Assembly (NCBI GenBank): GCA_029978905.1
Contig: JAPOIM010000001.1
Coordinates: 21,564-85,563 of the forward strand
Reading direction: 5' to 3'
DNA length: 64,000 nt
DNA from: Planctomycetota bacterium
GTDB taxonomy: Bacteria; Planctomycetota; Planctomycetia; Pirellulales; UBA1268
Position 1 is the first letter of the stretch, and every line of letters starts with the position of its first letter. Made by a program: the position numbers and the translations under genes. Positions 11,343-49,366 of the stretch are shown piece after piece. The notes under the pieces were generated by a model. It worked only from the letters and a program-made list of their open reading frames with translations. It did not search any database and had not been told where the DNA came from.

Positions 11343-12752
11343 ATGTCTACACCACGCTCTCTCCTCGACAAAATTTGGGATCAGCATGTGGTTTGCGCAC
11401 CCGATGGTGAACAACCGCTGATCTACATCGATCTTCACCTCGTGCACGAGGTGACCAGCCCGCAGGCGTTTGAAGGCCTGCGGCTTGCCGGTCGCAAGGT
11501 ACGGCGGCCCGAACGCACGTTCGCCACGCCCGACCACAACGTGCCGACCACCGATCGTCGCCTTCCGATCGCTGATCCGATCAGTCGTCAGCAGATCGAC
11601 ACGCTGCGGAACAACTGCCGCGAGTTTGGCGTCCGACTGTTCGATCTCGACGACGCCGACCAAGGCATTGTCCACGTGATCGGTCCCGAAATGGGACTGA
11701 CGCAACCGGGCATGACCATCGTCTGCGGCGACAGTCATACGGCCACCCACGGTGCCCTCGGGGCTCTGGCTTTCGGCATCGGCACCAGTGAAGTCGAACA
11801 CGTGCTGGCCACGCAGACGCTGCGTCAAAGCAAGCCAAAGTCGCTCGAACTGCGTGTGGACGGCGAACTCGCCCCCGGGATCACCGCCAAGGATCTCGTG
11901 CTCTACCTGATCGGGAAGATCTCAACCGAAGGTGGCACCGGATCGGTCATCGAATACACCGGCCCCGTCATTCGCCGGCTGTCGATGGAGCAGCGGATGA
12001 CCGTCTGCAACATGTCGATCGAAGCAGGTGCTCGGGCAGGCATGATCGCCCCCGACGCCACGACGTTCGACTACCTCCGAGGCCGCGACTTTGCTCCTAA
12101 GGACTTCGACGCCGCGGTTGCGAGGTGGAAGCAGCTGGCGAGCGATCCCGGCTGCCACTACGACCGCGTGGAGATCTTCAACGGCGGAGACGTCGTGCCA
12201 CAGGTCACCTGGGGCACCAACCCGGCACAGGTCGTGGGCGTGGACACCACGGTCCCCGATCCGGCGAGCCTGGAAACCGCAGCCGACCGTGACTCGGCCA
12301 CGAGGGCCCTGGACTACATGGGGCTCGCCGCTGGCACGAAGATCGTCGACATCCCGCTCGACCGGGTGTTCATCGGTTCCTGCACCAACAGCCGGATCGA
12401 GGACCTGCGGGAAGCGGCGCGAGTCGTCCGCGGTCATCGCGTTTCGTCGAACGTCAACGCGATGGTGGTGCCTGGTAGCGGCCGCGTGAAGCGTCAGGCC
12501 GAAGCCGAAGGGCTTGACCGGATCTTTGTTGAGGCAGGATTTGAGTGGCGTGAAGCGGGCTGCAGCATGTGTCTGGGGATGAATCCAGACACCCTGTCTG
12601 TCGGCGAACGGTGCGCCTCCACCAGCAATCGCAACTTTGAGGGACGGCAGGGCAAGGGAGGCCGGACACACCTCGTGTCACCATCGATGGCTGCGGCAGC
12701 CGCGATCACCGGTCACTTCACGGACATCCGTGGCTGGAACTACCAAGACTGA
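11343..12752 (+). CDS. leuC: 3-isopropylmalate dehydratase large subunit
   Basis: Full-length aconitase-family protein with [20 protein letters not shown] and [11 protein letters not shown]. Confidence 0.95.
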
Positions 12753-12794
12753 CTCCCCACCGGTTCGCCGGAAGAAAGGACCGCATCACCTCCC

Positions 12795-13391
12795 ATGGAA
12801 CCGTTTACGATCCACACTGGTGTCGTGGCAGCCCTCGATCGGGCCAATGTCGACACCGACCAGATCATTCCGAAGCAGTTTCTCAAGCGGATTGAACGCA
12901 CTGGCTTCGGTGAGTTCCTCTTTTTTGACTGGCGTTTCCTGCCGGATGGTTCCCCCGATCCGGCCTTCGAACTCAACGCCCCAGAGTTGGCGGGCGCGAG
13001 CATTTTGCTTGCTCGCCGCAACTTCGGCTGTGGCTCAAGCCGCGAGCATGCCCCCTGGGCACTTGGCGACTACGGCTTCCGGGTGGTCATCGCGCCGACC
13101 TTCGCCGACATCTTCTATTCCAACTGCTTTCAGAACGGAATCCTGCCAATCCGGCTCGACGAAGCCGACGTGGACGAACTGTTTCGCCGAAGCCAGGCTG
13201 GCCCATACCGGCTCACCGTCGACCTGACCACGCAGACGATTCGAGACGACGCAGGGTTTTCCCGGCCTTTCGAAATCGACGCGTTTCGCCGCCGGAGCCT
13301 CCTGGAAGGCCTCGATGCGATCGGGCTCACGCTGCAGCATGAAGCCGCCATCGACGAGTGGGAGCGGAGCCATGGTGTCGCACAGGCCTAA
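12795..13391 (+). CDS. leuD: 3-isopropylmalate dehydratase small subunit
   Basis: [14 protein letters not shown] and [15 protein letters not shown] motifs. Immediately follows leuC. Confidence 0.95.
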
Positions 13392-14899: not shown

Positions 14900-15039
14900 C
14901 GGTAGCCGCGACGCGCCCGCCTCAACGTATCTGGGTACCGACCGCGACCGCACCCTTGGTATGATCCGACCCCAGTGCCGGGACATCGCTCCGGCATACG
15001 CCGATTTTGCCCTGCTGCCGCAGACAAGGAACTGCTTTC

Positions 15040-16089
15040 ATGACCAACGCCACGATCGCATCCGATGCCCCCATCTCCACCGGACGGTGGCATGCTCTCG
15101 CCTGCCGCGTTCTCGATGGGCATCAGGTCGACCGCGACGAAGCGCGGGCGATGCTCGATTCGAGCGACGAAGAGCTTCTTGAACTCTTGGCCGCCGCATA
15201 CCGGCTTCGGCACCGTCGGTTTGGCAACACCGTGCAACTCTTTTTCTTGATGAATGCCAAGAGTGGGTTGTGCCCTGAAGACTGCAGTTACTGCTCCCAG
15301 TCGAAAGTTTCCGAAGCAGAAATCCCACGTTACAACCTGCTCTCGGCCCCAAAGCTGATGGAAGCCGCTCGGATGGCCGCGGAACGGAACTCCAAGACGT
15401 TCTGCATCGTCATCTCCGCACGAGGTCCCACCGAACGCGAGATGGCCGCCGTGTGTGAGATCGTTCCGAAGATCAAGCAGGAACATGACCTCAATATCTG
15501 CGCGTGCCTTGGCCTGCTGACCCCGGAGCAAGCCAAGCGGCTTGCAGACGCAGGCGTCGACAAGGTGAACCACAACCTCAACACCAGCAGCCGATACTAC
15601 GCCGAGATCTGCTCCACCCACACCTACGCCGACCGCGTGGCCACACTCGCTGCCTGCCGAGAAGCAGGGCTTTCCCTGTGCAGCGGTGGCATCATCGGAA
15701 TGGGGGAAGAACGCGACGACGTGGTCTCGATGGCGATGGAGCTGCGGGATCTCCATGTTGAGAGCATTCCCCTGAACTTTCTGAACGCGATCGATGGCAC
15801 CCCTCTCGAACACACCTCCTCGCTGACGCCACGCGATTGCCTCCGGGCCTTGGCGATGATGCGATTTGTGAACCCCGACGCAGAAATCCGGATTGCGGGT
15901 GGCCGCGAACTGCACCTCAGGAGCCTCCAACCGCTCGGGCTCTATCCGGCAAACTCGATCTTCGTGGGCGATTACCTGACCACCAAGGGCCAGCTGCCCG
16001 AGGCTGATGAGTCGATGATCCGAGACCTCGGGTTTGAAATCACGAAGGGCTCCGAGGCGGCAGAACCACCAGCCTGCACGAACGCATAA
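15040..16089 (+). CDS. bioB: Biotin synthase (radical SAM)
   Basis: CPEDCSYCSQS radical-SAM cluster motif and BioB-like remainder (NLNTS, GGIIGMGE). ATG verified at 15040. Confidence 0.9.
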   Translation: MTNATIASDAPISTGRWHALACRVLDGHQVDRDEARAMLDSSDEELLELLAAAYRLRHRRFGNTVQLFFLMNAKSGLCPEDCSYCSQSKVSEAEIPRYNLLSAPKLMEAARMAAERNSKTFCIVISARGPTEREMAAVCEIVPKIKQEHDLNICACLGLLTPEQAKRLADAGVDKVNHNLNTSSRYYAEICSTHTYADRVATLAACREAGLSLCSGGIIGMGEERDDVVSMAMELRDLHVESIPLNFLNAIDGTPLEHTSSLTPRDCLRALAMMRFVNPDAEIRIAGGRELHLRSLQPLGLYPANSIFVGDYLTTKGQLPEADESMIRDLGFEITKGSEAAEPPACTNA

Positions 16090-21546: not shown

Positions 21547-23511
<1,965 letters not shown>

Positions 23512-23559
23512 TCGCGACGCCCACACAATCCATGTCACGAAGTCCGCGTGACAGTTCGC

Positions 23560-23596
23560 CCGTCGCCGGGGGGTTTCCCTCGGCGACGGTTTTATT
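23560..23596 (+). terminator. Rho-independent terminator after the beta-barrel gene
   Basis: Stem ccgtcgccg (23560-23568) pairs with cggcgacgg (23581-23589), followed by ttttatt. Confidence 0.7.
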
Positions 23597-23597
23597 G

Positions 23598-24110
23598 CTA
23601 CGGCTCCACGTTGATCCAGGCAGCCGTCGCGCCCCGCACCCGGGCGAGCTTGGCATGCCGCTCGATGAGCGGTTGCCAGAGCGGGCAGGCGGCCACGGGC
23701 TCAACCGACACAGGCAGTTCGGCTGGCAAACCGTCGGGGCCCACTTGGGCAAACCCAAACAGCCCATCCATCCAGGGTAGATCCCGGCCGTGAAGCGGCA
23801 TGCCGATCACGCCGACCGCGAGGTAGCCGCGTCGCACAGCGAGCACCGCCCCTCGGATCTCCACGAGCGACCCGACCGGCACACTTTGGCGACACTCCAG
23901 GGAAATCACCCGCCGCAGCATCAAGTTGGCGGTGGGCCCCACAGCCCGCGTTGCGGTCGCGTACCCCGTCTCCAGCCCGTACTGCAGGAGGGCGCCTGCG
24001 TAGAGCGTGCCGTAATGGTTCGCATCCGCCGGGAGCACAAGGCGGTGGTTAGCCGTTTCTCGCGGCCCCGGACTGGCGGTCGATGCGGAAGCAGAGGATT
24101 CGAGTGACAT
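23598..24110 (-). CDS. Hotdog-fold acyl-CoA/acyl-carrier thioesterase
   Basis: ATG verified at 24108-24110, 7 nt after the stop of the fusion gene. PADANHYGTLYAGALLQYGLE is typical of the YciA/Acot-type hotdog thioesterases. Confidence 0.7.
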   Translation of the reverse strand: MSLESSASASTASPGPRETANHRLVLPADANHYGTLYAGALLQYGLETGYATATRAVGPTANLMLRRVISLECRQSVPVGSLVEIRGAVLAVRRGYLAVGVIGMPLHGRDLPWMDGLFGFAQVGPDGLPAELPVSVEPVAACPLWQPLIERHAKLARVRGATAAWINVEP

Positions 24111-24117
24111 GGCCCGG

Positions 24118-27100
24118 TTATAGCCGGGCCTGGGCAACCTCTGAAAGAGACCGGCTGCCGGTGCGGCGAGCAGGCCGAATCACCTCGGGAGCAATCCGCT
24201 CGAGCTCTTCTCGCATCACGCTCACCGTGGTGCGGATCTGCTCGGACGTGTGCTTCGACGTGATGAAGAACCGCAAGCGGGCCGCTGCCTCTTCCACCGC
24301 GGGATAGAGAATCGGCTGCACGTTGATGCCACGGGCAAACAGGGCCTGCGAAAGCTGCAGGCTCAGCAGCGAGCTGCCAAGAATCACCGGCACCACACCC
24401 GAGTTCGACGACTGTCCTGTGTCGAGCCCGGCCTCGGCAGCGAGTTCCAGGAACAGCGCTGCATTGGCCTGTAACTGCGCGGGCCGCTCTGGCTGCTCGT
24501 GGAGCAGGTTAATCGCCGCCAAGGCTGCTCCAGCTGCCGAAGGAGGCAACCCAATCGAGTACACGAAGCCGGGAACCGTGTATTTCAGCCACTGGACCAG
24601 TGCCTTGGACCCCGCGATGTAGCCGCCGCAGCTGCCAAACGCCTTGGAAAGCGTGCCCATCCAGAGGTCCACCTCGGCAGGATCCATGCCGAAGTGCTCA
24701 GAGATTCCGCGCCCACGCTGCCCCATGACACCGATCGAGTGGGCTTCATCCACCATCAACAGGGCCTTATGCCGACGGGCCACGTCGACAAATCGCGGCA
24801 CGTCGGCGAAGTCGCCGTCCATGCTGTACACACCTTCGACGACCATCAGCACGCGACGATACTGCCCGCGGACCTGGGCCAGCATCGCATCGGCCGCCTC
24901 CACATCGTTGTGAGGGAAGGCACGGCGGCGGGCGCCAGAGAGCACCGCCCCCTGCTGGATGCTGTTGTGGGCGAGCGCGTCGTGCAGGATCAGGTCACCC
25001 GGTCCGACCACGTGGCCGATCACCGTTTCGTTGGTGGCGTGGCCACCGACGAGGGTAATCGCATCTTCAGTGCCGACGAGGCCGGCGATCGCCCGTTCCA
25101 GCTCCACGTGAATCGTCTTCTCGCCGGACACGAGCCGACTGGCCGAGGCGCTAGTGCCAAAGCGATCAATCGCGTCCTTCGCGCCCTTGGTGACCTCGGG
25201 GTCCCCGGACATGCCGAGGTAGTTGTAGGTGGCCCAACTGATGAGCTCACGACCGCCGATCTGCGTCAGGTCGCCGGTCACCCCCTCGTGCACACTGAAG
25301 TAGGGGTTTTGCAACCCTGCGTCGCGGATCATCTGGAAGTTTTGTTCAAGCGCTCGCACCTCAGGAAACGCCTCGATGCGGTAGGCCTCTTCCGAGATCT
25401 CACCAGCCGCCACGGTGTCGCCCGCCGTCGCCATCATCTCCCCGCCGCCAGGGAGGTGGTCAACAATCGCCTCTGCCACTTCGCGGCAGGTTTCGATCAT
25501 GGGGAGCACCTGTTCGGGGAAACGGCCACCGAACGTGTCTTCAAGAGCGGCGACGATCTCCATCCGTTCGAGCGAATCGAGACCGAGTTCCACGATGTTG
25601 GTGTCGAGCGACAGTTCGCGTGCCCGTTCCTTGGCCACCTTGCGGACGTGCTCATACACCGTCTGGACGAGGGCGTCTGGCAGGTCTCGCTGAGGCTTGC
25701 CAGCACGGTTGCTGTCGCCAAGGGGGCGCAACCGCGCGAGCCTTGGCGCCGCACTCCCGGCAGGCGTCTCTGGTGCCGGTTCGGCGGAGACTGCAGCCGC
25801 GGCAGCCGGAGACTGCTGCCATGCCACTTGCTGCTCCACCACTTCCAGCGTCCCTTCGAGGAACATCTTCTTGCACAGATGCCGCTGAATCTTGCCGCTG
25901 GATGTCTTCGGGACGCTGTTGGGACGCACCAGCACCACACCCTCGAGAGCCACTTCATGCTCGGTGGCCAGGCGGCGGCGAATCGCGTCTATGGCGCCAG
26001 CGATTTCGGTCGGCTCGCGACGCCCTCGCTCCAGTTCCGCCACGACCACCACCCGCTCGCGACCTTCCATGTCCACGGAGAACGCAGCCACGCTCCCCGC
26101 CCGCACGAGCGCACTCGTGTCTTCCACCGACGCCTCGAGATCCTGAGGGTAGTGGTTGCGGCCGCGGATGATGATCAGATCCTTCAACCGCCCAGTGACA
26201 AACAGTTCGCCGTCGTCAAAGAAGCCAAGATCGCCCGTCCGCATGTAGGGGCCAGGATGACGGTCGGTTGCGAGCCCCTCAGGCAAGTGGAGCATCGCCC
26301 CAAACGTCTCCTGTGTGGCCTCGCGACGGTTCCAGTAGCCTTGTGCCACACTGGGACCACTGACCCAGATCTCGCCCACGCGGCGAGCCGGCAGGGGGCT
26401 GAAGGTGTCGTGATCCACGATCACAACATCCTGTCCCTCCAGTTCACCACCACTTCCCACGAGTCGACGCGAGCCGGCATCGGCACCAATCACGGGCTGC
26501 GCTTGGTCGCTTTCGAGGGCGGTTGCGTCAAACGTGCGAATCACCGGAGGCTCAAACTTCATGCCGCCGGTGACCATCAGCGTGCTCTCAGCTAAGCCGT
26601 AGCACGGGAAGAAGGCCTCCCGCCGAAAGCCACACGGCTCAAACGCCTCGCAGAAGGCGTCGATCGTTTCGGGACGCACGGGTTCGGCACCATTGAAGGC
26701 CAGCGACCAGCTCGAGAGATCGAGTTCTGCCCGCTGCTCCGGCGTCGTCTTCCGCACACACAGCTCGTAGGAGAAGTTCGGGCCACCACTGATCGTCGCC
26801 TTGTACTTCGAGATCGCTTGCAGCCAGCGGAGGGGCTTCTGCAGAAACGCCACGGGCGACATGATGACGTTGAACTTCCCGCCGTAGAGCGGCACGAGGA
26901 TGCCGCCGATCAAGCCCATGTCGTGGAAACTCGGCAGCCAGAACACCCCAGACTGGCTGCGGGTGATCTCAAACGCCTGCATGATCCGCAGCGAGTTGTG
27001 CAGCAGGTTGCCGTGCGACAGCATCACGCCCTTGGGCGTCCCTGTCGAACCGCTGGTGTACTGCAGGAAGGCGAGGGTGTCGCCGTCGATGTCGGGACGT

Positions 27101-27654
27101 TCCCACTGGTCGGCCCAGTGATCCTCGAGTTCGCTGTCCACCTTCCACACGAGCGACTCGAGGCTCGGCGCCGTCGCCCGAAGGCTGTCGAAGCGATCGA
27201 GCACGTCGCGAGTGGTCAGGGCCACCGAGGCGCGGGCATCAGCGGCGATCGTCTCAATGCGCTCGACGGAACGGTTCTTCCGCGGCGGATAGGCGGGCAC
27301 CGCAATCGCCCCGCCGTACAGGCAGCCCATGAAGGCGGCAATGAAGTCAAGCCCCGACGGGTAGAGCAACAGCACCCGCTTGCCCCGCATCCCGGAAGCA
27401 GCGAGCCACGCCCCCACACCCCGGGCCTTCCGGTCCAACTCGGCGTAGGTGATGTTGAGCTCTTCCTGTTCACCATCCACAAGGAAGGTGAAGGCGCGGT
27501 CATGGGGCCGATAGCCGGCGCGTTGCCGAAGCAGATCGACGATGGTCGGTGCGAACGAGTTTTCGCCAGGTGCGGTAGGATTCACGTCGTCTGCGGGCTC
27601 CGAGGCTGCCGACGGGGAAGACACAGGCCACTGCGGCTCATAGGGTGTCGGCAA
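24118..27654 (-). CDS. Trifunctional fatty-acyl-AMP ligase / acyl carrier protein / PLP-dependent alpha-oxoamine synthase fusion
   Basis: One uninterrupted ORF. The adenylation domain carries FLQYTSGSTGTPKGV, YGLAES, TGDLGF, GRLKDLIIIRGRNHYPQDLE and SSGKIQR. The carrier domain carries ELGLDSLERME. The AOS domain carries MVDEAHS and GTLSKAFGSCGGY. The first start-like codon is TTG (27652-27654); alternative GTGs are at 27624 and 27585, so the exact start is uncertain. Confidence 0.85.
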   Translation of the reverse strand: MPTPYEPQWPVSSPSAASEPADDVNPTAPGENSFAPTIVDLLRQRAGYRPHDRAFTFLVDGEQEELNITYAELDRKARGVGAWLAASGMRGKRVLLLYPSGLDFIAAFMGCLYGGAIAVPAYPPRKNRSVERIETIAADARASVALTTRDVLDRFDSLRATAPSLESLVWKVDSELEDHWADQWERPDIDGDTLAFLQYTSGSTGTPKGVMLSHGNLLHNSLRIMQAFEITRSQSGVFWLPSFHDMGLIGGILVPLYGGKFNVIMSPVAFLQKPLRWLQAISKYKATISGGPNFSYELCVRKTTPEQRAELDLSSWSLAFNGAEPVRPETIDAFCEAFEPCGFRREAFFPCYGLAESTLMVTGGMKFEPPVIRTFDATALESDQAQPVIGADAGSRRLVGSGGELEGQDVVIVDHDTFSPLPARRVGEIWVSGPSVAQGYWNRREATQETFGAMLHLPEGLATDRHPGPYMRTGDLGFFDDGELFVTGRLKDLIIIRGRNHYPQDLEASVEDTSALVRAGSVAAFSVDMEGRERVVVVAELERGRREPTEIAGAIDAIRRRLATEHEVALEGVVLVRPNSVPKTSSGKIQRHLCKKMFLEGTLEVVEQQVAWQQSPAAAAAVSAEPAPETPAGSAAPRLARLRPLGDSNRAGKPQRDLPDALVQTVYEHVRKVAKERARELSLDTNIVELGLDSLERMEIVAALEDTFGGRFPEQVLPMIETCREVAEAIVDHLPGGGEMMATAGDTVAAGEISEEAYRIEAFPEVRALEQNFQMIRDAGLQNPYFSVHEGVTGDLTQIGGRELISWATYNYLGMSGDPEVTKGAKDAIDRFGTSASASRLVSGEKTIHVELERAIAGLVGTEDAITLVGGHATNETVIGHVVGPGDLILHDALAHNSIQQGAVLSGARRRAFPHNDVEAADAMLAQVRGQYRRVLMVVEGVYSMDGDFADVPRFVDVARRHKALLMVDEAHSIGVMGQRGRGISEHFGMDPAEVDLWMGTLSKAFGSCGGYIAGSKALVQWLKYTVPGFVYSIGLPPSAAGAALAAINLLHEQPERPAQLQANAALFLELAAEAGLDTGQSSNSGVVPVILGSSLLSLQLSQALFARGINVQPILYPAVEEAAARLRFFITSKHTSEQIRTTVSVMREELERIAPEVIRPARRTGSRSLSEVAQARL

Positions 27655-27976
27655 CTTCGGTCTGTGCGAAAGACATTGTAGGCGGCCAGGCAGAGCAACC
27701 CGCAGTTTCGGCGCAGAGTGCCACCCCGCACCTCACCTCACCCAGATGGGCTTCCTGACCGGCAAGGTCACGAAAAGCCCCCGGGTTCCTCAGGCTTCGC
27801 CCGGGTCCCGCCGGTCTCGCCTGAGGCCCCCACACACGGAGCATCGCAGGGAACGGTCCACGAGCCTCCACCCGCCGCCAGCACCCGCTGCGACGACGAA
27901 CGGAGCGGACACTGCGTTGACACGTCTCACACGGCGATTCACAGCCGGCCCAACGGCACGGCCTCGTCAGTGCGAT

Positions 27977-44206: not shown

Positions 44207-46390
44207 ATGCCTGCCCAGGACCCACCAGCTGACAGCCCCACCGATGCGTCGCCTCACCGCGAGCCAGGCAACGCCGGCCTGCCCGCGCCGCCCGGTCCCT
44301 CTTCCCCTGGGCTTCGTGCAAAACTCGAGTGGCTCCCAGGTGTGGGAAGTCGTCGCGCGGAGCGACTGGCGAAGCTCGGGTTGGTGGAGGTCCGCCAGGC
44401 GCTCGTGCACTTCCCTCGCGACTACAAGGATTTCACCGGCAGCCACTCCTTAGACGCGATCGTGGCAGGCGAGCATGCGGCCGTGGCAGGTGAGGTGATC
44501 GACGTCGGATCGCGAACGACGATCACCGGCAAGACGATGGTGACGCTCCTGCTGGCCACCCCAGCAGGCCCACTCCGCGGCATCTGGTTTGGGATGCCTT
44601 TCCTGGCCAAGCGGTTTCGCGTGGGCAGCCGGGTCGTGCTGGCGGGGGTGCCGCGTCAGGCTGCGGGCTCCTGGGAGATGGCGCACCCGGAGGTACGGTA
44701 TCTCGACGCCGACGAGGCCAGTGAGTCGTCGCCATGGCTGGCCGTCTATCCACTGACCGACGGTGTTCGGCAGTCCGATGTGCGGATGGGCGTGCAGGCG
44801 GCATTGGCTGCCGCCGAAGGCCAACTCCAAGAGACGTTCCGCCCTGACGAACTCGACGCTCGCGGCCTGCTCCCGATCCACGAAGCCTTTCGCGCCGTGC
44901 ACCTGCCAGCAAGCCGCGAGGAAATCGATGCCGGCCGGCGTCGGTTTATCTACCAGGAGCTTTACATGCTCCAGCTGGCCCTGCGGCTCCACCGCCGGCA
45001 GGCTGAGGTGGCGCACCAGGCCCCGGTCATCGCTCCAGCCGCCGACGTTCGCAGCCGCATCGAGGGCGTGTTTCCTTTCCCTCTGACCGAGGCTCAGCGA
45101 CGGGTTGCGGGGGAGATCCTCACCGACATGACCCACCCCACGCCGATGCAGCGATTGCTCCAGGGAGACGTCGGCAGCGGGAAGACCGCTGTCGCAGTGG
45201 TAGCCCTCCTGGCTGCGGCCCTGACCGGCCACCAGGGGGTGATCATGGCCCCCACCGAGCTACTTGCCCGGCAGCATCTCACTACCCTGGAACGGATTCT
45301 CGGTGGACGGCAGCTGATGGATGCCGCGGGCGAACCGCTCTCCCCTTCGGTTGAGCTGCTGATCGGCGGTCAGACCAAAGCCGTTCGCGAAGCCACCCTT
45401 GCACGGATCGCTCAAGGAACGTCGCGGCTGATCGTGGGCACGCAGGCACTCGTCGCGTCGCCACCCCAGTTTCATCGCCTCGGGCTTGTCGTGATCGATG
45501 AGCAGCACCGGTTTGGGGTGGTGCAGCGGGCGCGTCTTCAGCAGGACGGCTGCCAGCCGCACACGCTGGTGATGACGGCGACACCGATCCCCCGCACCGT
45601 GGCGCACGCCCTCTACGGCGACCTCGACCTTTCCACGATCGATGAACAACCTCCCGGCCGCCAGCCGGTGCAGACCTACCGCGTCGGGGCCCAACAGCTG
45701 GAACGGTGGTGGGGTTTCTACTGCAAAAAGTTGCGGGAAGGCCGCCGCGGGTATGTCGTCGTCCCCGCCGTGGAAGAGTCGGAGTCGGGCCTCGCCAGCA
45801 TCGATTCCGCCCTCGAGGAACTCGCCAACGGCCCGCTCGAGGCTTTTCGCCTTGGCCTCGTGCATGGCCGACTCGCCGCGGATGTGAAGCACGCCATCAT
45901 GGAAGACTTTCGTCGAGGTCGTATCGACGTGATCGTCGCCACGAGCGTGGTCGAAGTGGGCATCGATGTGCCAGAGGCCACAATCATGACGATCCTCGAT
46001 GCCGACCGCTTCGGACTCGCCCAGCTGCACCAGCTTCGCGGCCGTGTCGCGCGAGGCGCCACACGCGGCATCTGCGGTGCGGTCACGCAGGCCTCCGCCG
46101 ACCATCCACGTCTTCAGGCCTTCGTCGACACCACCGACGGCTTTCGGCTCGCAGAGATTGACCTCATTCAACGAGGACCTGGCGAACTTGTGGGCACGAA
46201 GCAATCAGGAGTGCCGCCGCTGTGCGTCGCCGACATTCTTCGAGACGCGCATGTCGCCACAGAAGCCCGCGAACACGCAATCGCCACGCTGGCTGCAAAC
46301 CCGTTTCTCGAAGGAGACGACCTATCGCGTTTGCGAAAACTCGTCGTCAGGCGTTGGGGCGACTCACTCGACCTCGGCGGCATCGGCTAG
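44207..46390 (+). CDS. recG: ATP-dependent DNA helicase RecG
   Basis: ATG preceded by ggagagggag. Wedge-domain N-terminus. GDVGSGKTAVA, VIDEQHRFGV, and QLHQLRGRVARG near the C-terminus. Confidence 0.92.
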   Translation: MPAQDPPADSPTDASPHREPGNAGLPAPPGPSSPGLRAKLEWLPGVGSRRAERLAKLGLVEVRQALVHFPRDYKDFTGSHSLDAIVAGEHAAVAGEVIDVGSRTTITGKTMVTLLLATPAGPLRGIWFGMPFLAKRFRVGSRVVLAGVPRQAAGSWEMAHPEVRYLDADEASESSPWLAVYPLTDGVRQSDVRMGVQAALAAAEGQLQETFRPDELDARGLLPIHEAFRAVHLPASREEIDAGRRRFIYQELYMLQLALRLHRRQAEVAHQAPVIAPAADVRSRIEGVFPFPLTEAQRRVAGEILTDMTHPTPMQRLLQGDVGSGKTAVAVVALLAAALTGHQGVIMAPTELLARQHLTTLERILGGRQLMDAAGEPLSPSVELLIGGQTKAVREATLARIAQGTSRLIVGTQALVASPPQFHRLGLVVIDEQHRFGVVQRARLQQDGCQPHTLVMTATPIPRTVAHALYGDLDLSTIDEQPPGRQPVQTYRVGAQQLERWWGFYCKKLREGRRGYVVVPAVEESESGLASIDSALEELANGPLEAFRLGLVHGRLAADVKHAIMEDFRRGRIDVIVATSVVEVGIDVPEATIMTILDADRFGLAQLHQLRGRVARGATRGICGAVTQASADHPRLQAFVDTTDGFRLAEIDLIQRGPGELVGTKQSGVPPLCVADILRDAHVATEAREHAIATLAANPFLEGDDLSRLRKLVVRRWGDSLDLGGIG

Positions 46391-47523
46391 TTCGCAGCGA
46401 CGATCCGCTCACCAGCCCTCCAGGCGTCTCCTTCTCGTTCGACACGGTGGTAGAGCGTGTCTCGTTCGACAGGCTCCCGACCGGCTTCGCGGATGAGCCG
46501 TTTGATGTGTTCCACCGAGAGCACTTCTGGCGTCGTTGCCCCGGCGTCGTGATAGATCAGTTCGTGGCGCACCGTGCCATCGAGGTCATCGGCGCCGTAG
46601 GCGAGTGACGCCTGGGCCGTCCCAAGGCCGAGCATGATCCAGTACGCCTTGATGTGATCAAAGTTGTCGAGCACGAGCCGCGAGATCGCCATTGTGCGGA
46701 GGCTCATCATCGCTGTCGGCTTGCCGATCTCCGCGAGCTGCGTGTTGTCTGGATGAAAAGCGAGCGGGATGAACGTTTGAAATCCGCCCGTCTCGTCCTG
46801 CAACTCACGGAGCCGGAGCAGGTGGTCGGTCCGGTGGTAGGCATTCTCAATGTGGCCGTAGAGCATCGTCGCATTGCTCCGCAGCCCAAGTTCGTGTGCC
46901 GTGCGATGGATGCGAAACCACTCTTCGGTGTCTGCTTTGTGTTCGCAGATCTTGTCACGAACCTCCGGGTGGAAGATCTCCGCCCCGCCGCCCGGCAGGC
47001 TACCCAGCCCCACAGACTTCAACTCTTCGAGAATGTCGCGGATCGAACGCTTTGTCAGATGACAAAACCAGTTGATCTCGACCGGCGTCCATGCCTTGAG
47101 GTGCAACGTTGGGTAGTGCTGGTGGAGCAGGGCGATGATGTCGCGGTACCACTCGTACTGCTTTTGGTGATGCAGGCCACCGACGATATGCATCTCGGTG
47201 CTTCCGCTCGCAACCGCCTCACGACCGCGCTCGAGAATCTGCTCGTCGCTCATCAGGTAGCCCCGCTCATCGCGGAGGTCTGCCCGGAACGCGCAGAAGG
47301 TGCATCGATAGATGCAGATGTTGGTGGGATTGAGATGGGTGTTGATGTTGTAGTAGCAGCGGTTGCCGTTCTTTCGCTCTCGCACGAGATTGGCGAGCTG
47401 CCCCAACTCATGAAGGTCGATCGCTTCATCCCAAAGGCTTTCGGCCTCTGCGGCATTCAAGCGCTCGCCAGCCTCCACCTTCTCACGAATCGGGCCGAGG
47501 GATCTGGACACACTGCGAATCAT
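46387..47523 (-). CDS. mqnE: Radical-SAM menaquinone (futalosine-route) enzyme, most like aminofutalosine synthase MqnE (MqnC not excluded)
   Basis: NINTHLNPTNICIYRCTFCAF (CX3CX2C). Length and the GGGAEIF pattern fit the MqnE/MqnC family. Neighbours are UbiA-type and UbiE/MenG genes. Confidence 0.75.
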   Translation of the reverse strand: MIRSVSRSLGPIREKVEAGERLNAAEAESLWDEAIDLHELGQLANLVRERKNGNRCYYNINTHLNPTNICIYRCTFCAFRADLRDERGYLMSDEQILERGREAVASGSTEMHIVGGLHHQKQYEWYRDIIALLHQHYPTLHLKAWTPVEINWFCHLTKRSIRDILEELKSVGLGSLPGGGAEIFHPEVRDKICEHKADTEEWFRIHRTAHELGLRSNATMLYGHIENAYHRTDHLLRLRELQDETGGFQTFIPLAFHPDNTQLAEIGKPTAMMSLRTMAISRLVLDNFDHIKAYWIMLGLGTAQASLAYGADDLDGTVRHELIYHDAGATTPEVLSVEHIKRLIREAGREPVERDTLYHRVEREGDAWRAGERIVAAN

Positions 47524-47633
47524 GACTGCACCTTTTCACTTCTGCGGGCCACCTGCCCACTCCGATCATTCACCATCGCCATCATCCCACACGTAACCGC
47601 AGAGCCGAACCGGAGGCAACACAGGCCATTCGC

Positions 47634-48554
47634 TCATGACCAGACGTCTGCTCCCACTGCCACCAACAGCACCGCTCCAATGATGGCGTTGGCTGTGAAA
47701 AACGCCGCATTGACCTTCGACAGGTCATCCGGCCGAACCAACGAGTGCTCCCAGAGGAGCAGCACTGCGATCACGCCGAGACCGATCCAGTAGGTCCCCC
47801 CCAGGGCTGGAATCGTCCATGGGAGCGCCGCGAGCAGGAGCAGCGTGACGCCGTGCATCACGGCAGCCACCCTCAGGGCCCGTGTCACTCCCAGCGTCGC
47901 GGGGATGCTGTGGAGGCCGACCTGGCTGTCGAACGCCGCATCTTGGCAGGCGTAGATCGTGTCAAATCCCGCCACCCAAAGCATCACCGCCAAGCCGAGG
48001 AGAAGTGCCGGTGAGAGGTCAGTCGGATCGGCCAGCACCGCCTCACCCCGGATGGCGATCCAGGCGGCCACCGGCGCCATCCCCAGCGCCGCCCCCAGCC
48101 ACACATGGGCCAGCATCGTGAAGCGTTTGGCGTAACTGTATCCCAGCAGCCAGGCGAGCACCGGCAGCGCGAGCACGACCGGCAACCAGTTCGGCAGAAA
48201 GAGGAGCGTTCCCGCCACGAACACCAGCGAGGAGACGGCGACCAAGGCCACCACCTGCCCCACGCTCAGCTCTCCAGAAGGAAGATGGCGAGTGGCCGTC
48301 CGCGGATTGGCCGCATCAATGTCGCGGTCAACAAGCCGATTGAACGCCATCGCCGCCGTTCTCGCCGAAACCATGCACACCACGACTCCCGCCAGCGGCA
48401 GCAGCCATCCGTCGGGCAACGGCCCGCCCCTGGAAGAAGGTTCGGCGCGACTCCAGGCAACGAGCACGGCAATGATCGCAAAGGGCATCGCGAAGACGGT
48501 GTGGCTAAACCGCACCAGCGACAGCATGGACTGCACGGGCGTCGCCATTCTCAT
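47634..48554 (-). CDS. UbiA-family aromatic polyprenyltransferase (menaquinone prenylation step candidate)
   Basis: NRLVDRDIDAANPRT and DTIYACQD Asp-rich motifs. Multiple TM helices. The ATG at 48552-48554 overlaps the upstream methyltransferase stop (ATGA). Confidence 0.85.
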   Translation of the reverse strand: MRMATPVQSMLSLVRFSHTVFAMPFAIIAVLVAWSRAEPSSRGGPLPDGWLLPLAGVVVCMVSARTAAMAFNRLVDRDIDAANPRTATRHLPSGELSVGQVVALVAVSSLVFVAGTLLFLPNWLPVVLALPVLAWLLGYSYAKRFTMLAHVWLGAALGMAPVAAWIAIRGEAVLADPTDLSPALLLGLAVMLWVAGFDTIYACQDAAFDSQVGLHSIPATLGVTRALRVAAVMHGVTLLLLAALPWTIPALGGTYWIGLGVIAVLLLWEHSLVRPDDLSKVNAAFFTANAIIGAVLLVAVGADVWS

Positions 48555-49366
48555 CGCTCCTCGCCACATGCGGCCTGCGAGCCACGGCGATGCGCAATGG
48601 TCAGCGTCGCGATACCAAAGGTGAGCGGATGCATCGCCACCCGCTCGTACCCCGCCGAGCGGACCAAATCCGCCAACCGCTCGCCGGAGGGAAACTCTTC
48701 CACGCTTTCGTTGAGATAGCGGTACGCGTCAGAGCCGTTCGCCGCCAGACCGTTTCCCAACCGCGGCAAGACATGACGGAAGTACCACAGGTAACTCGCC
48801 CGAATCAGCGGGTTGGTCGGCAAGGAAAACTCCAGGATCGCCAATCGGCCGCCCGGACGGGTGACACGAGCCATCTCGGCGAGCCCCGTGGCCGTGTCGG
48901 CAATATTCCGCAACCCGAACGCGACGGTCACGAGGTCGAACGAAGCATCCGGGAAGGGGAGGGACATCGCATCCGCTTCGAACCACTCCACCGGCAAGCC
49001 GCGTCGCCGCGACTTCACCACCGCGTGGTCGAGCATCGGCTGACAGAAATCTGCTCCCACGACCCGAACCGCGGGCCCAGCCTTCTGCGCGTAGGCGATG
49101 GCGAGGTCTCCCGTCCCGGTGCACAGGTCCAGCATCGCCCCGGCCGCCGGAGGGGGGGCGTGCCGCACGGTGAACCGACGCCAGAGCACATCGATCCCGC
49201 CGGAGAGCGTGCGGTTGGCAAGATCGTATCGTGGCGCGATCTCCGCAAACATGCCGCGGACGCGTTCACCACTCTTGTCGACCTTCACGTGGCCGTTCGT
49301 CTCCGTGCCGACCTCAGGATCTGCAAGATCGGGTTGTCTCTCCACCGCCATTGATTCGCTGCCCAT
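48551..49366 (-). CDS. ubiE: Demethylmenaquinone/ubiquinone C-methyltransferase
   Basis: VRGMFAEIAPRYDLANRTLSGGIDVLWRR, SAM motif LDLCTGTGDLA and FGLRN. Confidence 0.88.
   Translation of the reverse strand: MGSESMAVERQPDLADPEVGTETNGHVKVDKSGERVRGMFAEIAPRYDLANRTLSGGIDVLWRRFTVRHAPPPAAGAMLDLCTGTGDLAIAYAQKAGPAVRVVGADFCQPMLDHAVVKSRRRGLPVEWFEADAMSLPFPDASFDLVTVAFGLRNIADTATGLAEMARVTRPGGRLAILEFSLPTNPLIRASYLWYFRHVLPRLGNGLAANGSDAYRYLNESVEEFPSGERLADLVRSAGYERVAMHPLTFGIATLTIAHRRGSQAACGEER

Follow-up and report, generated by a model that had tools for sequence, protein, structure and literature searches.

A fatty acyl-AMP ligase, acyl carrier and SgaB-type oxoamine synthase fused in one protein of Pirellulales: a candidate self-contained long-chain-base synthase

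We analyzed a stretch of 64,000 nucleotides from a planctomycete of the order Pirellulales (Planctomycetota bacterium; assembly GCA_029978905.1, contig JAPOIM010000001.1, forward-strand positions 21,564 to 85,563), hereafter the window, in whose own coordinates all positions are given. It contains a minus-strand gene whose product joins a fatty acyl-AMP ligase (FAAL), an acyl carrier protein (ACP) domain and an alpha-oxoamine synthase (AOS) in a single polypeptide. Based on the relationships of these three domains we propose that the gene probably encodes a self-contained long-chain-base synthase, which would convert a free fatty acid and L-serine to a base of the 3-ketosphinganine type; the more general chemistry, namely the formation of an aminoketone from a fatty acid and an amino acid, we regard as very likely. 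The identity and order of the domains, the intactness of their catalytic motifs, the placement of the AOS in one clade with a proven serine palmitoyltransferase (SPT) and the conservation of the gene throughout Pirellulales are established below. The gene and its parts are the following:

24118..27654, minus strand: FAAL-ACP-AOS tri-domain gene, delineated from the list of open reading frames (ORFs), Pfam and NCBIfam domains, homologues and independent assemblies
25834..27528, minus strand: FAAL domain (residues 43-607), with an N-terminal ANL core and a C-terminal subdomain, from Pfam PF00501 and PF23024, NCBIfam and PDB matches
26452..26514, minus strand: FAAL-specific insertion at about residues 381-401 (ESDQAQPVIGADAGSRRLVGS), downstream of the YGLAES motif, from a MAFFT alignment
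25465..25662, minus strand: acyl carrier domain (residues 665-730) with its phosphopantetheine site, Ser694, encoded at 25573-25575, from PF00550 and the motif
24208..25410, minus strand: SgaB-type AOS or SPT-like domain (residues 749-1149), with the lysine predicted to bind pyridoxal phosphate (PLP), Lys1004, encoded at 24643-24645, from PF00155, the match to PfSgaB and the tree

The tri-domain ORF runs unbroken for 1178 codons from a TTG start, although an in-frame GTG at codon 11 (27624), which would give a protein of 1168 residues, may be the true start because the closest homologue listed has that length. An earlier annotation made from the sequence alone (the first-pass annotation) had described an uninterrupted minus-strand frame with three units in the order adenylation, carrier and AOS, and Pfam recovers precisely this arrangement: AMP-binding (PF00501, residues 43-441, E 4.7e-66) with the DIP2/FAAL-type C-terminal subdomain (PF23024, residues 492-607), PP-binding (PF00550, residues 665-730, E 1.1e-10) and Aminotran_1_2 (PF00155, residues 803-1144, E 1.2e-47). 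The motifs it quoted also lie where it put them in the translation, those of adenylation being FLQYTSGSTGTPKGV (196-210), YGLAES (352-357), TGDLGF (473-478), GRLKDLIIIRGRNHYPQDLE (488-507) and SSGKIQR (585-591), and those of the AOS MVDEAHS (967-973) and GTLSKAFGSCGGY (1000-1012, including Lys1004). A frameshift or an assembly join of separate genes could mimic such a protein; however, Logan contigs assembled from three DNA runs unrelated to one another (among them 23589-27004 and 23368-26991), and from one metatranscriptome, all from estuary and seawater metagenomes, span the junctions between the downstream hotdog gene and the AOS, between the AOS and the ACP, and between the ACP and the FAAL, and differ from the window by substitutions only, with no insertions or deletions. 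Since independent assemblies thus cross every domain junction without indels, the fusion is real and not an assembly artefact. Metatranscriptome contigs additionally support expression of the gene, with carry-over of DNA into the RNA library being possible. At 26980-27040, where the TSGSTGTPKG core motif of adenylation lies, every one of the four independent assemblies breaks or branches; this is likely to stem from near-identical DNA of paralogous AMP-binding genes in the community rather than from a real junction.

Within the adenylation domain we located all the core motifs of the ANL superfamily (TSGSTGxPKG, YGxAE, TGD, GRxKD and PKTxSGKI). The NCBIfam models that rank highest for it are FAAL families (377-459 bits, every one under its equivalog or subfamily cut-off), and its best matches among solved structures in the PDB are without exception FAALs, namely 7R7E/F/G (593 bits), Legionella 3KXW (472 bits), FadD32, FadD23, FadD28 and EcFAAL. 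The closest of these, 7R7E, with 48.6% identity in a MAFFT alignment, bears in the PDB only the name 'Polyketide synthase'; we take it to be the FAAL that loads the Synechococcus PCC 7002 olefin synthase, and presumably it binds a C18 adenylate. In the same kind of alignment the stretch at about residues 381-401 is common to the FAALs of the window, of other Pirellulales and of 7R7E and falls opposite a 21-column gap in the E. coli acyl-CoA ligase FadD. On these grounds we classify the adenylation domain as a FAAL and not an acyl-CoA ligase, which bears out the fatty-acyl-AMP-ligase character assigned to it by the first-pass annotation; it most resembles the long-chain FAALs. Members of the FAAL family reject coenzyme A (CoA) and load only holo-carrier proteins, with a FAAL-specific helix and a blocked CoA pocket (PMC8460268), and by analogy we would expect the window domain likewise to refuse CoA and to load a carrier alone.

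A suitable carrier follows directly in the same chain. The PF00550 domain contains the motif ELGLDSLERME at residues 689-699 (LGLDSLERME at 690-699), whose DSL serine is Ser694, the phosphopantetheine site predicted at the outset. FAAL-ACP units 44-51% identical to that of the window were also encountered in far longer proteins of Pirellulales and Acidobacteriota (loci L057, L060, L066, L068 and L076, with matches of about 5 kilobases); therefore a loader of this kind also serves larger assembly lines.

The AOS family comprises fold-type I PLP enzymes marked by a catalytic lysine, a histidine that stacks on PLP, the aspartate and histidine of the DEAHS motif and a C-terminal arginine that binds the carboxylate of the amino acid. 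When aligned with 3A2B, 7POA and plant LCB2a the C-terminal domain of the window protein matches all of them, with Lys1004, the MVDEAHS motif, the histidine of LAHNS and the arginine of ARLRFF in the corresponding positions, and its lysine motif GTLSKAFGSCGGYIAGSK is nearly identical to that of the eukaryotic LCB2 (LCB2a). Measured against solved structures as a whole it is about equally distant (162-232 bits) from ThAOS, plant LCB2a, bacterial SPT, Kbl, 5-aminolevulinate synthase (ALAS) and BioF. A search of 1.84 billion protein cluster representatives was more revealing: the best 150 matches (49-64% identity) are nearly all C-terminal domains of carrier-containing megaenzymes of 0.8-2.9 thousand residues. 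Pfam searches of a sample of these representatives recovered ketosynthase (KS)-acyltransferase (AT)-dehydratase (DH)-enoyl reductase (ER)-ketoreductase (KR)-ACP-AOS, KS-AT-...-AOS, ACP-AOS and FAAL-ACP-AOS architectures, the last being that of seven out of ten sampled proteins about 1.1 thousand residues long. We therefore assign the window domain to a large clade of AOSs that depend on a carrier and release the chain.

One member of this clade has been characterized. Pseudomonas fluorescens MYb115 produces C24-C28 sphinganines by means of the type I polyketide synthase (PKS) SgaA, which works iteratively, the AOS SgaB and a putative KDSR-like short-chain dehydrogenase/reductase (SDR), SgaC (Peters et al. 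2025, PMC12134224). Its SgaB (PfSgaB) is required in vivo for these sphinganines, and the purified enzyme binds L-serine and forms 3-ketosphinganines by condensing this amino acid with acyl thioesters, with a 'virtually exclusive preference' over alanine and glycine (PMC12134224). The window domain aligns with PfSgaB, whose sequence was taken from the supplement of that paper, over 402 residues at 55% identity (E 1e-149), and the motifs around the amino-acid site agree (GTSASASRLVSG in the window against GTSVSASRLVSG in PfSgaB). In a neighbor-joining tree, a small, distance-based one built on 343 trimmed columns, the window domain, three orthologues from Pirellulales, seven megasynthase-linked representatives, a stand-alone Shinella enzyme and PfSgaB are united in one clade (bootstrap 100/100), to the exclusion of E. 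coli BioF, two archaeal AOSs encoded next to bioB, a Bacteroides AOS, E. coli Kbl, ThAOS and Sphingobacterium SPT. Identities are 55-65% within the clade and 31-35% to proteins outside it, with 31% to E. coli BioF. By its sequence, then, the domain is of the SgaB type and not a BioF. In the same small tree the carrier-dependent clade is the sister of plant LCB2a (91/100), rather than of Sphingobacterium SPT.

In light of these affinities we posit the following reaction sequence. The FAAL domain would adenylate a free long-chain fatty acid, and the acyl group would pass, presumably in cis, not to CoA but to the phosphopantetheine arm that Ser694 of the same polypeptide carries. The C-terminal PLP enzyme would form, through Lys1004, an external aldimine with an amino acid, most probably L-serine, and a decarboxylative Claisen condensation with the carrier-bound acyl thioester would then release a 2-amino-3-ketoalkane, that is a base of the 3-ketosphinganine type, and set the carrier arm free. 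The FAAL identity of the loader, the carrier serine and the clade of the AOS all support the earlier idea that activation, tethering and decarboxylative condensation are fused here to give a long-chain 2-amino-3-ketone.

Each step has a counterpart in known systems, from all of which the window protein departs in some respect. It shares with the Sga system the 100/100 clade of the AOS, with matching active-site motifs, and the release of a carrier-bound chain by condensation with an amino acid, but its FAAL would load a ready-made free fatty acid where the SgaA PKS builds the chain, its loader, carrier and AOS make up a single chain, its host is a planctomycete, and neither a KS or AT gene nor an SgaC-like reductase is linked to it in the window or in the related loci. 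In Caulobacter and other Rhodobacteria AasR, which does not accept CoA, charges AcpR with a free fatty acid and Spt takes the acyl-carrier as its substrate; in Caulobacter this route is believed to steer free fatty acids toward sphingolipids (Padilla-Gomez et al. 2022, PMC9386255). This separately encoded carrier and synthetase, a precedent correctly named in the first-pass annotation, follow an identical logic of adenylation, tethering and condensation; the likeness is one of logic, with three separate genes there as opposed to one fused gene in the window. FAAL-ACP loading didomains (7R7E and Legionella 3KXW) are comparable in their FAAL insertion, ANL motifs and carrier placed after the FAAL, with 593 bits and 48.6% identity to 7R7E; however, they pass the chain to a ketosynthase for extension, whereas the next and last domain in the window protein is a releasing AOS. 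An AOS directly after a carrier, releasing the chain as an aminoketone, is likewise found in the prodiginine and saxitoxin proteins RedL, RedN/PigH and SxtA, which in the prodiginine case had already been named as carrier-AOS fusions and which are likened here by the architectures given in PMC3870968. Their loaders and chains are pyrrolyl, short acyl and methylated acetate, and they belong to secondary-metabolite clusters, in contrast to the window gene, which stands alone in a core genomic context.

The complete architecture has itself been catalogued. Proteins with the order adenylation-carrier-AOS were listed from Blastopirellula marina (A3ZWL3), Microscilla marina (A1ZVW4) and Synechococcus PCC 7002 (B1XHP8) (Milano et al. 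2013, PMC3870968); these share the three-domain order of the window protein and include one entry from Pirellulales, and the catalogue, which combined bioinformatics with homology models, assigned no substrate, product or role. The first-pass annotation had allowed for the family being already characterized; beyond this 2013 listing we found no characterized FAAL-ACP-AOS protein in the full-text literature on 'oxoamine synthase', nothing in literature combining FAAL with AOS, BioF or SPT, and no oxoamine or PLP fusion mentioned in a 2025 review of FAALs in natural-product biosynthesis or in a 2021 eLife survey of FAAL architectures. Two AOS papers considered as precedents were set aside, as they concern unrelated stand-alone enzymes (a Nostoc BioF and a Bacteroides CqsA-like protein). 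A cluster resembling sgaABC is present in Shinella yambaruensis (locus L070, 2583-18544), where a 2467-residue KS-AT-DH-ER-KR-ACP synthase, a stand-alone AOS and an SDR are followed by Wzz-like and ABC-transporter genes, an arrangement suggesting that this rhizobial relative may export a sphingoid lipid of PKS origin.

Several observations weigh against the proposal that the window gene makes a 3-ketosphinganine-type base from a free fatty acid and serine. The chain length in it is extrapolated from the relatives of the FAAL, and the serine specificity from PfSgaB at 55% identity. Unlike classical Spt, the window AOS falls below the cut-offs of all three NCBIfam Spt models (NF047599, NF047600 and NF047603; 286 bits against a cut-off of 640, 269 against 500 and 226 against 670) and lies apart from Sphingobacterium SPT in the tree. 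Neither a ketosphinganine reductase nor a ceramide synthase nor a phosphopantetheinyl transferase is recognizable among the proteins of the window, the first two absences having already been remarked upon in the first-pass annotation, and a search with the SgaC-like SDR of Shinella brought up no homologue in either the window or the flanks of the related loci. To our knowledge no sphingolipids have been reported from cultured Pirellulales. One may therefore envisage the same chemistry with another amino acid, such as alanine or glycine, or for another purpose, giving a 1-deoxy-type base, a pyrazine precursor or a CAI-1-like signal, that is a signal or specialized metabolite and not a membrane base. 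This would be in keeping with the lack of a linked reductase or N-acyltransferase, with AOSs of similar fold that make autoinducers (CqsA and a Bacteroides example) and with the many PKS-terminal AOS domains of the clade that have no known products. The first-pass annotation had held that the amino acid cannot be read from the sequence; specificity indeed is still not legible there, but membership of the PfSgaB clade now makes serine the favored guess, as its sole characterized member is almost exclusively serine-specific and agrees with the window in the motifs around the amino-acid site. Moreover, the core housekeeping context and order-wide conservation of the gene fit a structural lipid better than a strain-specific metabolite, and hence we consider a different amino acid or purpose rather unlikely.

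The proposal that the protein is the BioF of the organism, joining pimelate on the carrier with alanine to give 8-amino-7-oxononanoate, appears at first sight to be favored by the annotation tools: among NCBIfam models the bioF model TIGR00858 matches the AOS domain best (345 bits), ahead of Kbl (301), ALAS (254) and a weak CqsA match, and the JGI label of the homologues is 8-amino-7-oxononanoate synthase. Further, a bioB gene noted earlier near 15040 is indeed present (15007-16089, plus strand; TIGR00433, 403 bits), about 7.5 kilobases from the hotdog gene, no other bioF is seen within the window, and a natural BioW-BioF fusion, to which such an enzyme would be analogous, exists (PMC9544090). 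However, the bioF score lies under its cut-off of 426, as do those for Kbl and ALAS under theirs, and the stand-alone Shinella AOS, 50% identical to the window domain, reaches 347 bits on the same model. As that enzyme is flanked by a KS-AT-DH-ER-KR-ACP synthase and an SDR it cannot be a BioF, and since a PKS-coupled AOS scores alike the top rank of the bioF model is not diagnostic; we consequently dropped it as evidence. The tree, contrary to the nesting within the BioF clade that the first-pass annotation had allowed for, separates the domain from E. coli BioF and from the bioB-adjacent archaeal AOSs with 100/100 support, its identity to BioF is 31% as against 55-59% to the proven SPT, the best relatives of the FAAL domain are long-chain FAALs, and linkage to bioB is limited to the close syntenic clade and absent from the flanks of distant loci. 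We judge a role in biotin synthesis to be extremely improbable. A further possibility is that the protein is the loading and release part of a dispersed assembly line, in which trans-acting enzymes first extend or modify the tethered chain, so that the product is no simple fatty-acid-derived base. Most relatives in the AOS clade sit in PKSs, and the FAAL-ACP pair is fused to larger synthases in loci of Pirellulales and Acidobacteriota (L057, L060, L066 and L076); against this, neither the window nor any of the 48 full-length loci has a KS, AT or other PKS gene close to the tri-domain gene, and the three domains alone amount to a chemically complete route, which makes such an arrangement quite improbable. 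Of these explanations, a long-chain-base synthase using serine thus remains the one that we favor.

The tri-domain protein has more than 8000 homologues; the best 120 listed are 1130-1184 residues long with the same three domains, and those that are named come from Planctomycetota or Pirellulales. Across one-genome-per-species contigs, full-length genes are found at 70-95% identity in metagenome-assembled genomes of Pirellulales; cultured Pirellulaceae (Novipirellula, Rhodopirellula, Aporhodopirellula, Neorhodopirellula, Stieleria and Rubripirellula) and Thermoguttaceae have them at 48-58% identity. Thus the architecture, on whose spread the first-pass annotation had passed no judgment, is widespread in Pirellulaceae, Thermoguttaceae and other Pirellulales. 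A Black Sea study has reported 138 Planctomycetota genomes with predicted 'Spt-like' proteins, whose fused state is not stated (PMC11334938). The window itself is ordinary chromosome, with genes for enolase, ribE, rsmA, leuCD, bioB, priA, recG and menaquinone synthesis, and members of the close clade share the gene order eno-ribE-rsmA-[tri-domain]-[170 aa]-BBP7-traB-like. The bioB gene stands alone downstream of leuC/leuD (11343-13391), with no bioA, bioD or bioF beside it. A run of three genes, for a CofH/MqnC-type radical SAM protein, a UbiA-family prenyltransferase and a UbiE/COQ5 methyltransferase (46387-49366, minus strand) looks like a menaquinone group of the futalosine route.

For a long time sphingolipid synthesis in bacteria was believed to occur only in a small number of phyla, those with classical Spt; the PKS route was added in 2025. 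The window gene would represent a further variant, with salvage of free fatty acids, tethering and condensation in one protein, and it is conserved across an abundant aquatic order of planctomycetes whose envelope lipids are poorly known. Because carriers of the gene such as Rhodopirellula, Novipirellula and Stieleria are in culture, a direct and cheap test is possible. The common database label '8-amino-7-oxononanoate synthase', meanwhile, wrongly casts these tri-domain proteins as enzymes of biotin synthesis. In biocatalysis, a protein of this kind could yield alpha-aminoketones from free acids without CoA thioesters.

We then considered the neighborhood of the gene, where three features adjoin it on its downstream side:

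23598..24110, minus strand: divergent YciA/Acot-type hotdog protein of 170 residues, from the junction sequence, profile matches, homologues and a metatranscriptome contig
21547..23511, plus strand: BBP7-family putative outer-membrane beta-barrel of 654 residues, counted from MGMKKNF, carrying long inserts of poly-Gly and poly-Asn (about 30 N/Q); PF07585 is found in its homologues
23560..23589, no strand assigned: GC-rich 13-pair hairpin in the gap where the hotdog and BBP7 genes converge, from a terminator scan, with a T-run on the plus-strand side only

The TAA stop codon of the tri-domain gene (24120-24118) is followed by 7 nucleotides and then by the ATG, at 24110, of the 170-residue ORF, which ends at 23598, exactly the spacing read earlier. 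An RNA-derived contig (24016-24795) bridges this gap, subject again to possible carry-over of DNA, and the two genes are probably co-transcribed. The first-pass annotation had paired the tri-domain protein with a hotdog thioesterase, of which the fold stands and a core partnership does not. Pfam and NCBIfam return no match to the 170-residue protein even at E<=1; however, a profile of 20 homologues run against PDB sequences finds the hotdog acyl-CoA hydrolases 2GVH (8e-11), 1VPM (2.5e-10) and 2EIS (3.8e-9), as well as ACOT12 and YciA HI0827, while an AlphaFold model from the 20-sequence alignment is unusable (mean predicted local distance difference test score, pLDDT, 40.6). The family is small, with 268 homologues under the JGI name 'acyl-CoA thioesterase YciA'. 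Its Asn31 is invariant, but Leu46, followed by an invariant Glu47, occupies the position of the helix aspartate of 1VPM, 2EIS and 2GVH, which we take to be the catalytic residue, with the asparagine of the DxN motif presumably its partner site. Thioesterase activity is therefore not to be assumed, as Leu46 replaces that aspartate, and judging from these residues the protein may be catalytically divergent or inactive. It is also no core partner: the gene lies directly downstream of the tri-domain gene in 17 related loci, all in the close clade, whereas in Pirellulaceae and Thermoguttaceae unrelated genes, for example mobA/moeA-like ones, take its place. Where it is present, the 170-residue protein may clear mis-loaded carrier or, alternatively, may free fatty acids from acyl-CoA or acyl-ACP and so feed the FAAL.

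The neighbor that is conserved across families is instead the BBP7 gene, which the first-pass annotation had not linked to the tri-domain gene. When ORFs in the flanks of the 48 full-length loci were clustered, one family was common to close and distant loci, namely signal-peptide-bearing, beta-rich BBP7 proteins, in 24 of the 48 loci and 14 of the 32 distant ones, a count inflated by the shared ancestry of loci. The BBP7 gene lies 0.2-1.5 kilobases from the tri-domain gene, mostly convergent and downstream, but upstream on the same strand in L016, L040 and L052; copies include L013:14011-15234, L016:7606-9228, L023:14034-15200, L040:5340-6566 and L061:13901-15310. With respect to PF07585 (putative beta-barrel porin, cut-off 26) the window protein itself has no Pfam match, homologues 53-66% identical to it reach 30-31 bits and the neighbors in distant loci 27-49 bits; its AlphaFold model is beta-rich and poor (pLDDT 41.5). 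Judging from this linkage the barrel may belong to the same system, and it might be FadL-like. The conserved linkage to a barrel gene hints at a connection of the outer membrane with the product, or with the fatty acid from which it is made. Accordingly, we advance as a tentative idea, which is possible but not probable, that Pirellulales as a group make sphingoid bases, and from these an unrecognized envelope lipid, via single-polypeptide FAAL-ACP-SPT proteins functionally coupled to a BBP7 barrel, for fatty-acid uptake or lipid placement, as a core trait of the cell envelope; this would constitute a third bacterial entry to sphingolipids beside classical Spt and PKS-SgaB.

The hairpin at 23560..23589 is likely a terminator. 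In the 600 base pairs upstream of the tri-domain gene we found no Rfam element and no repeat, and a scan found no sigma-70-like promoter for this gene. The intergenic stretch 27780-27819, upstream of the tri-domain gene, is polymorphic in the population: one run has a 20-nucleotide insertion (GGCTTCGCCCGGGTTCCGCC) behind 27792, and the contig of another run goes back 40 nucleotides, which suggests that a short segment of the putative promoter or leader region is duplicated in tandem.

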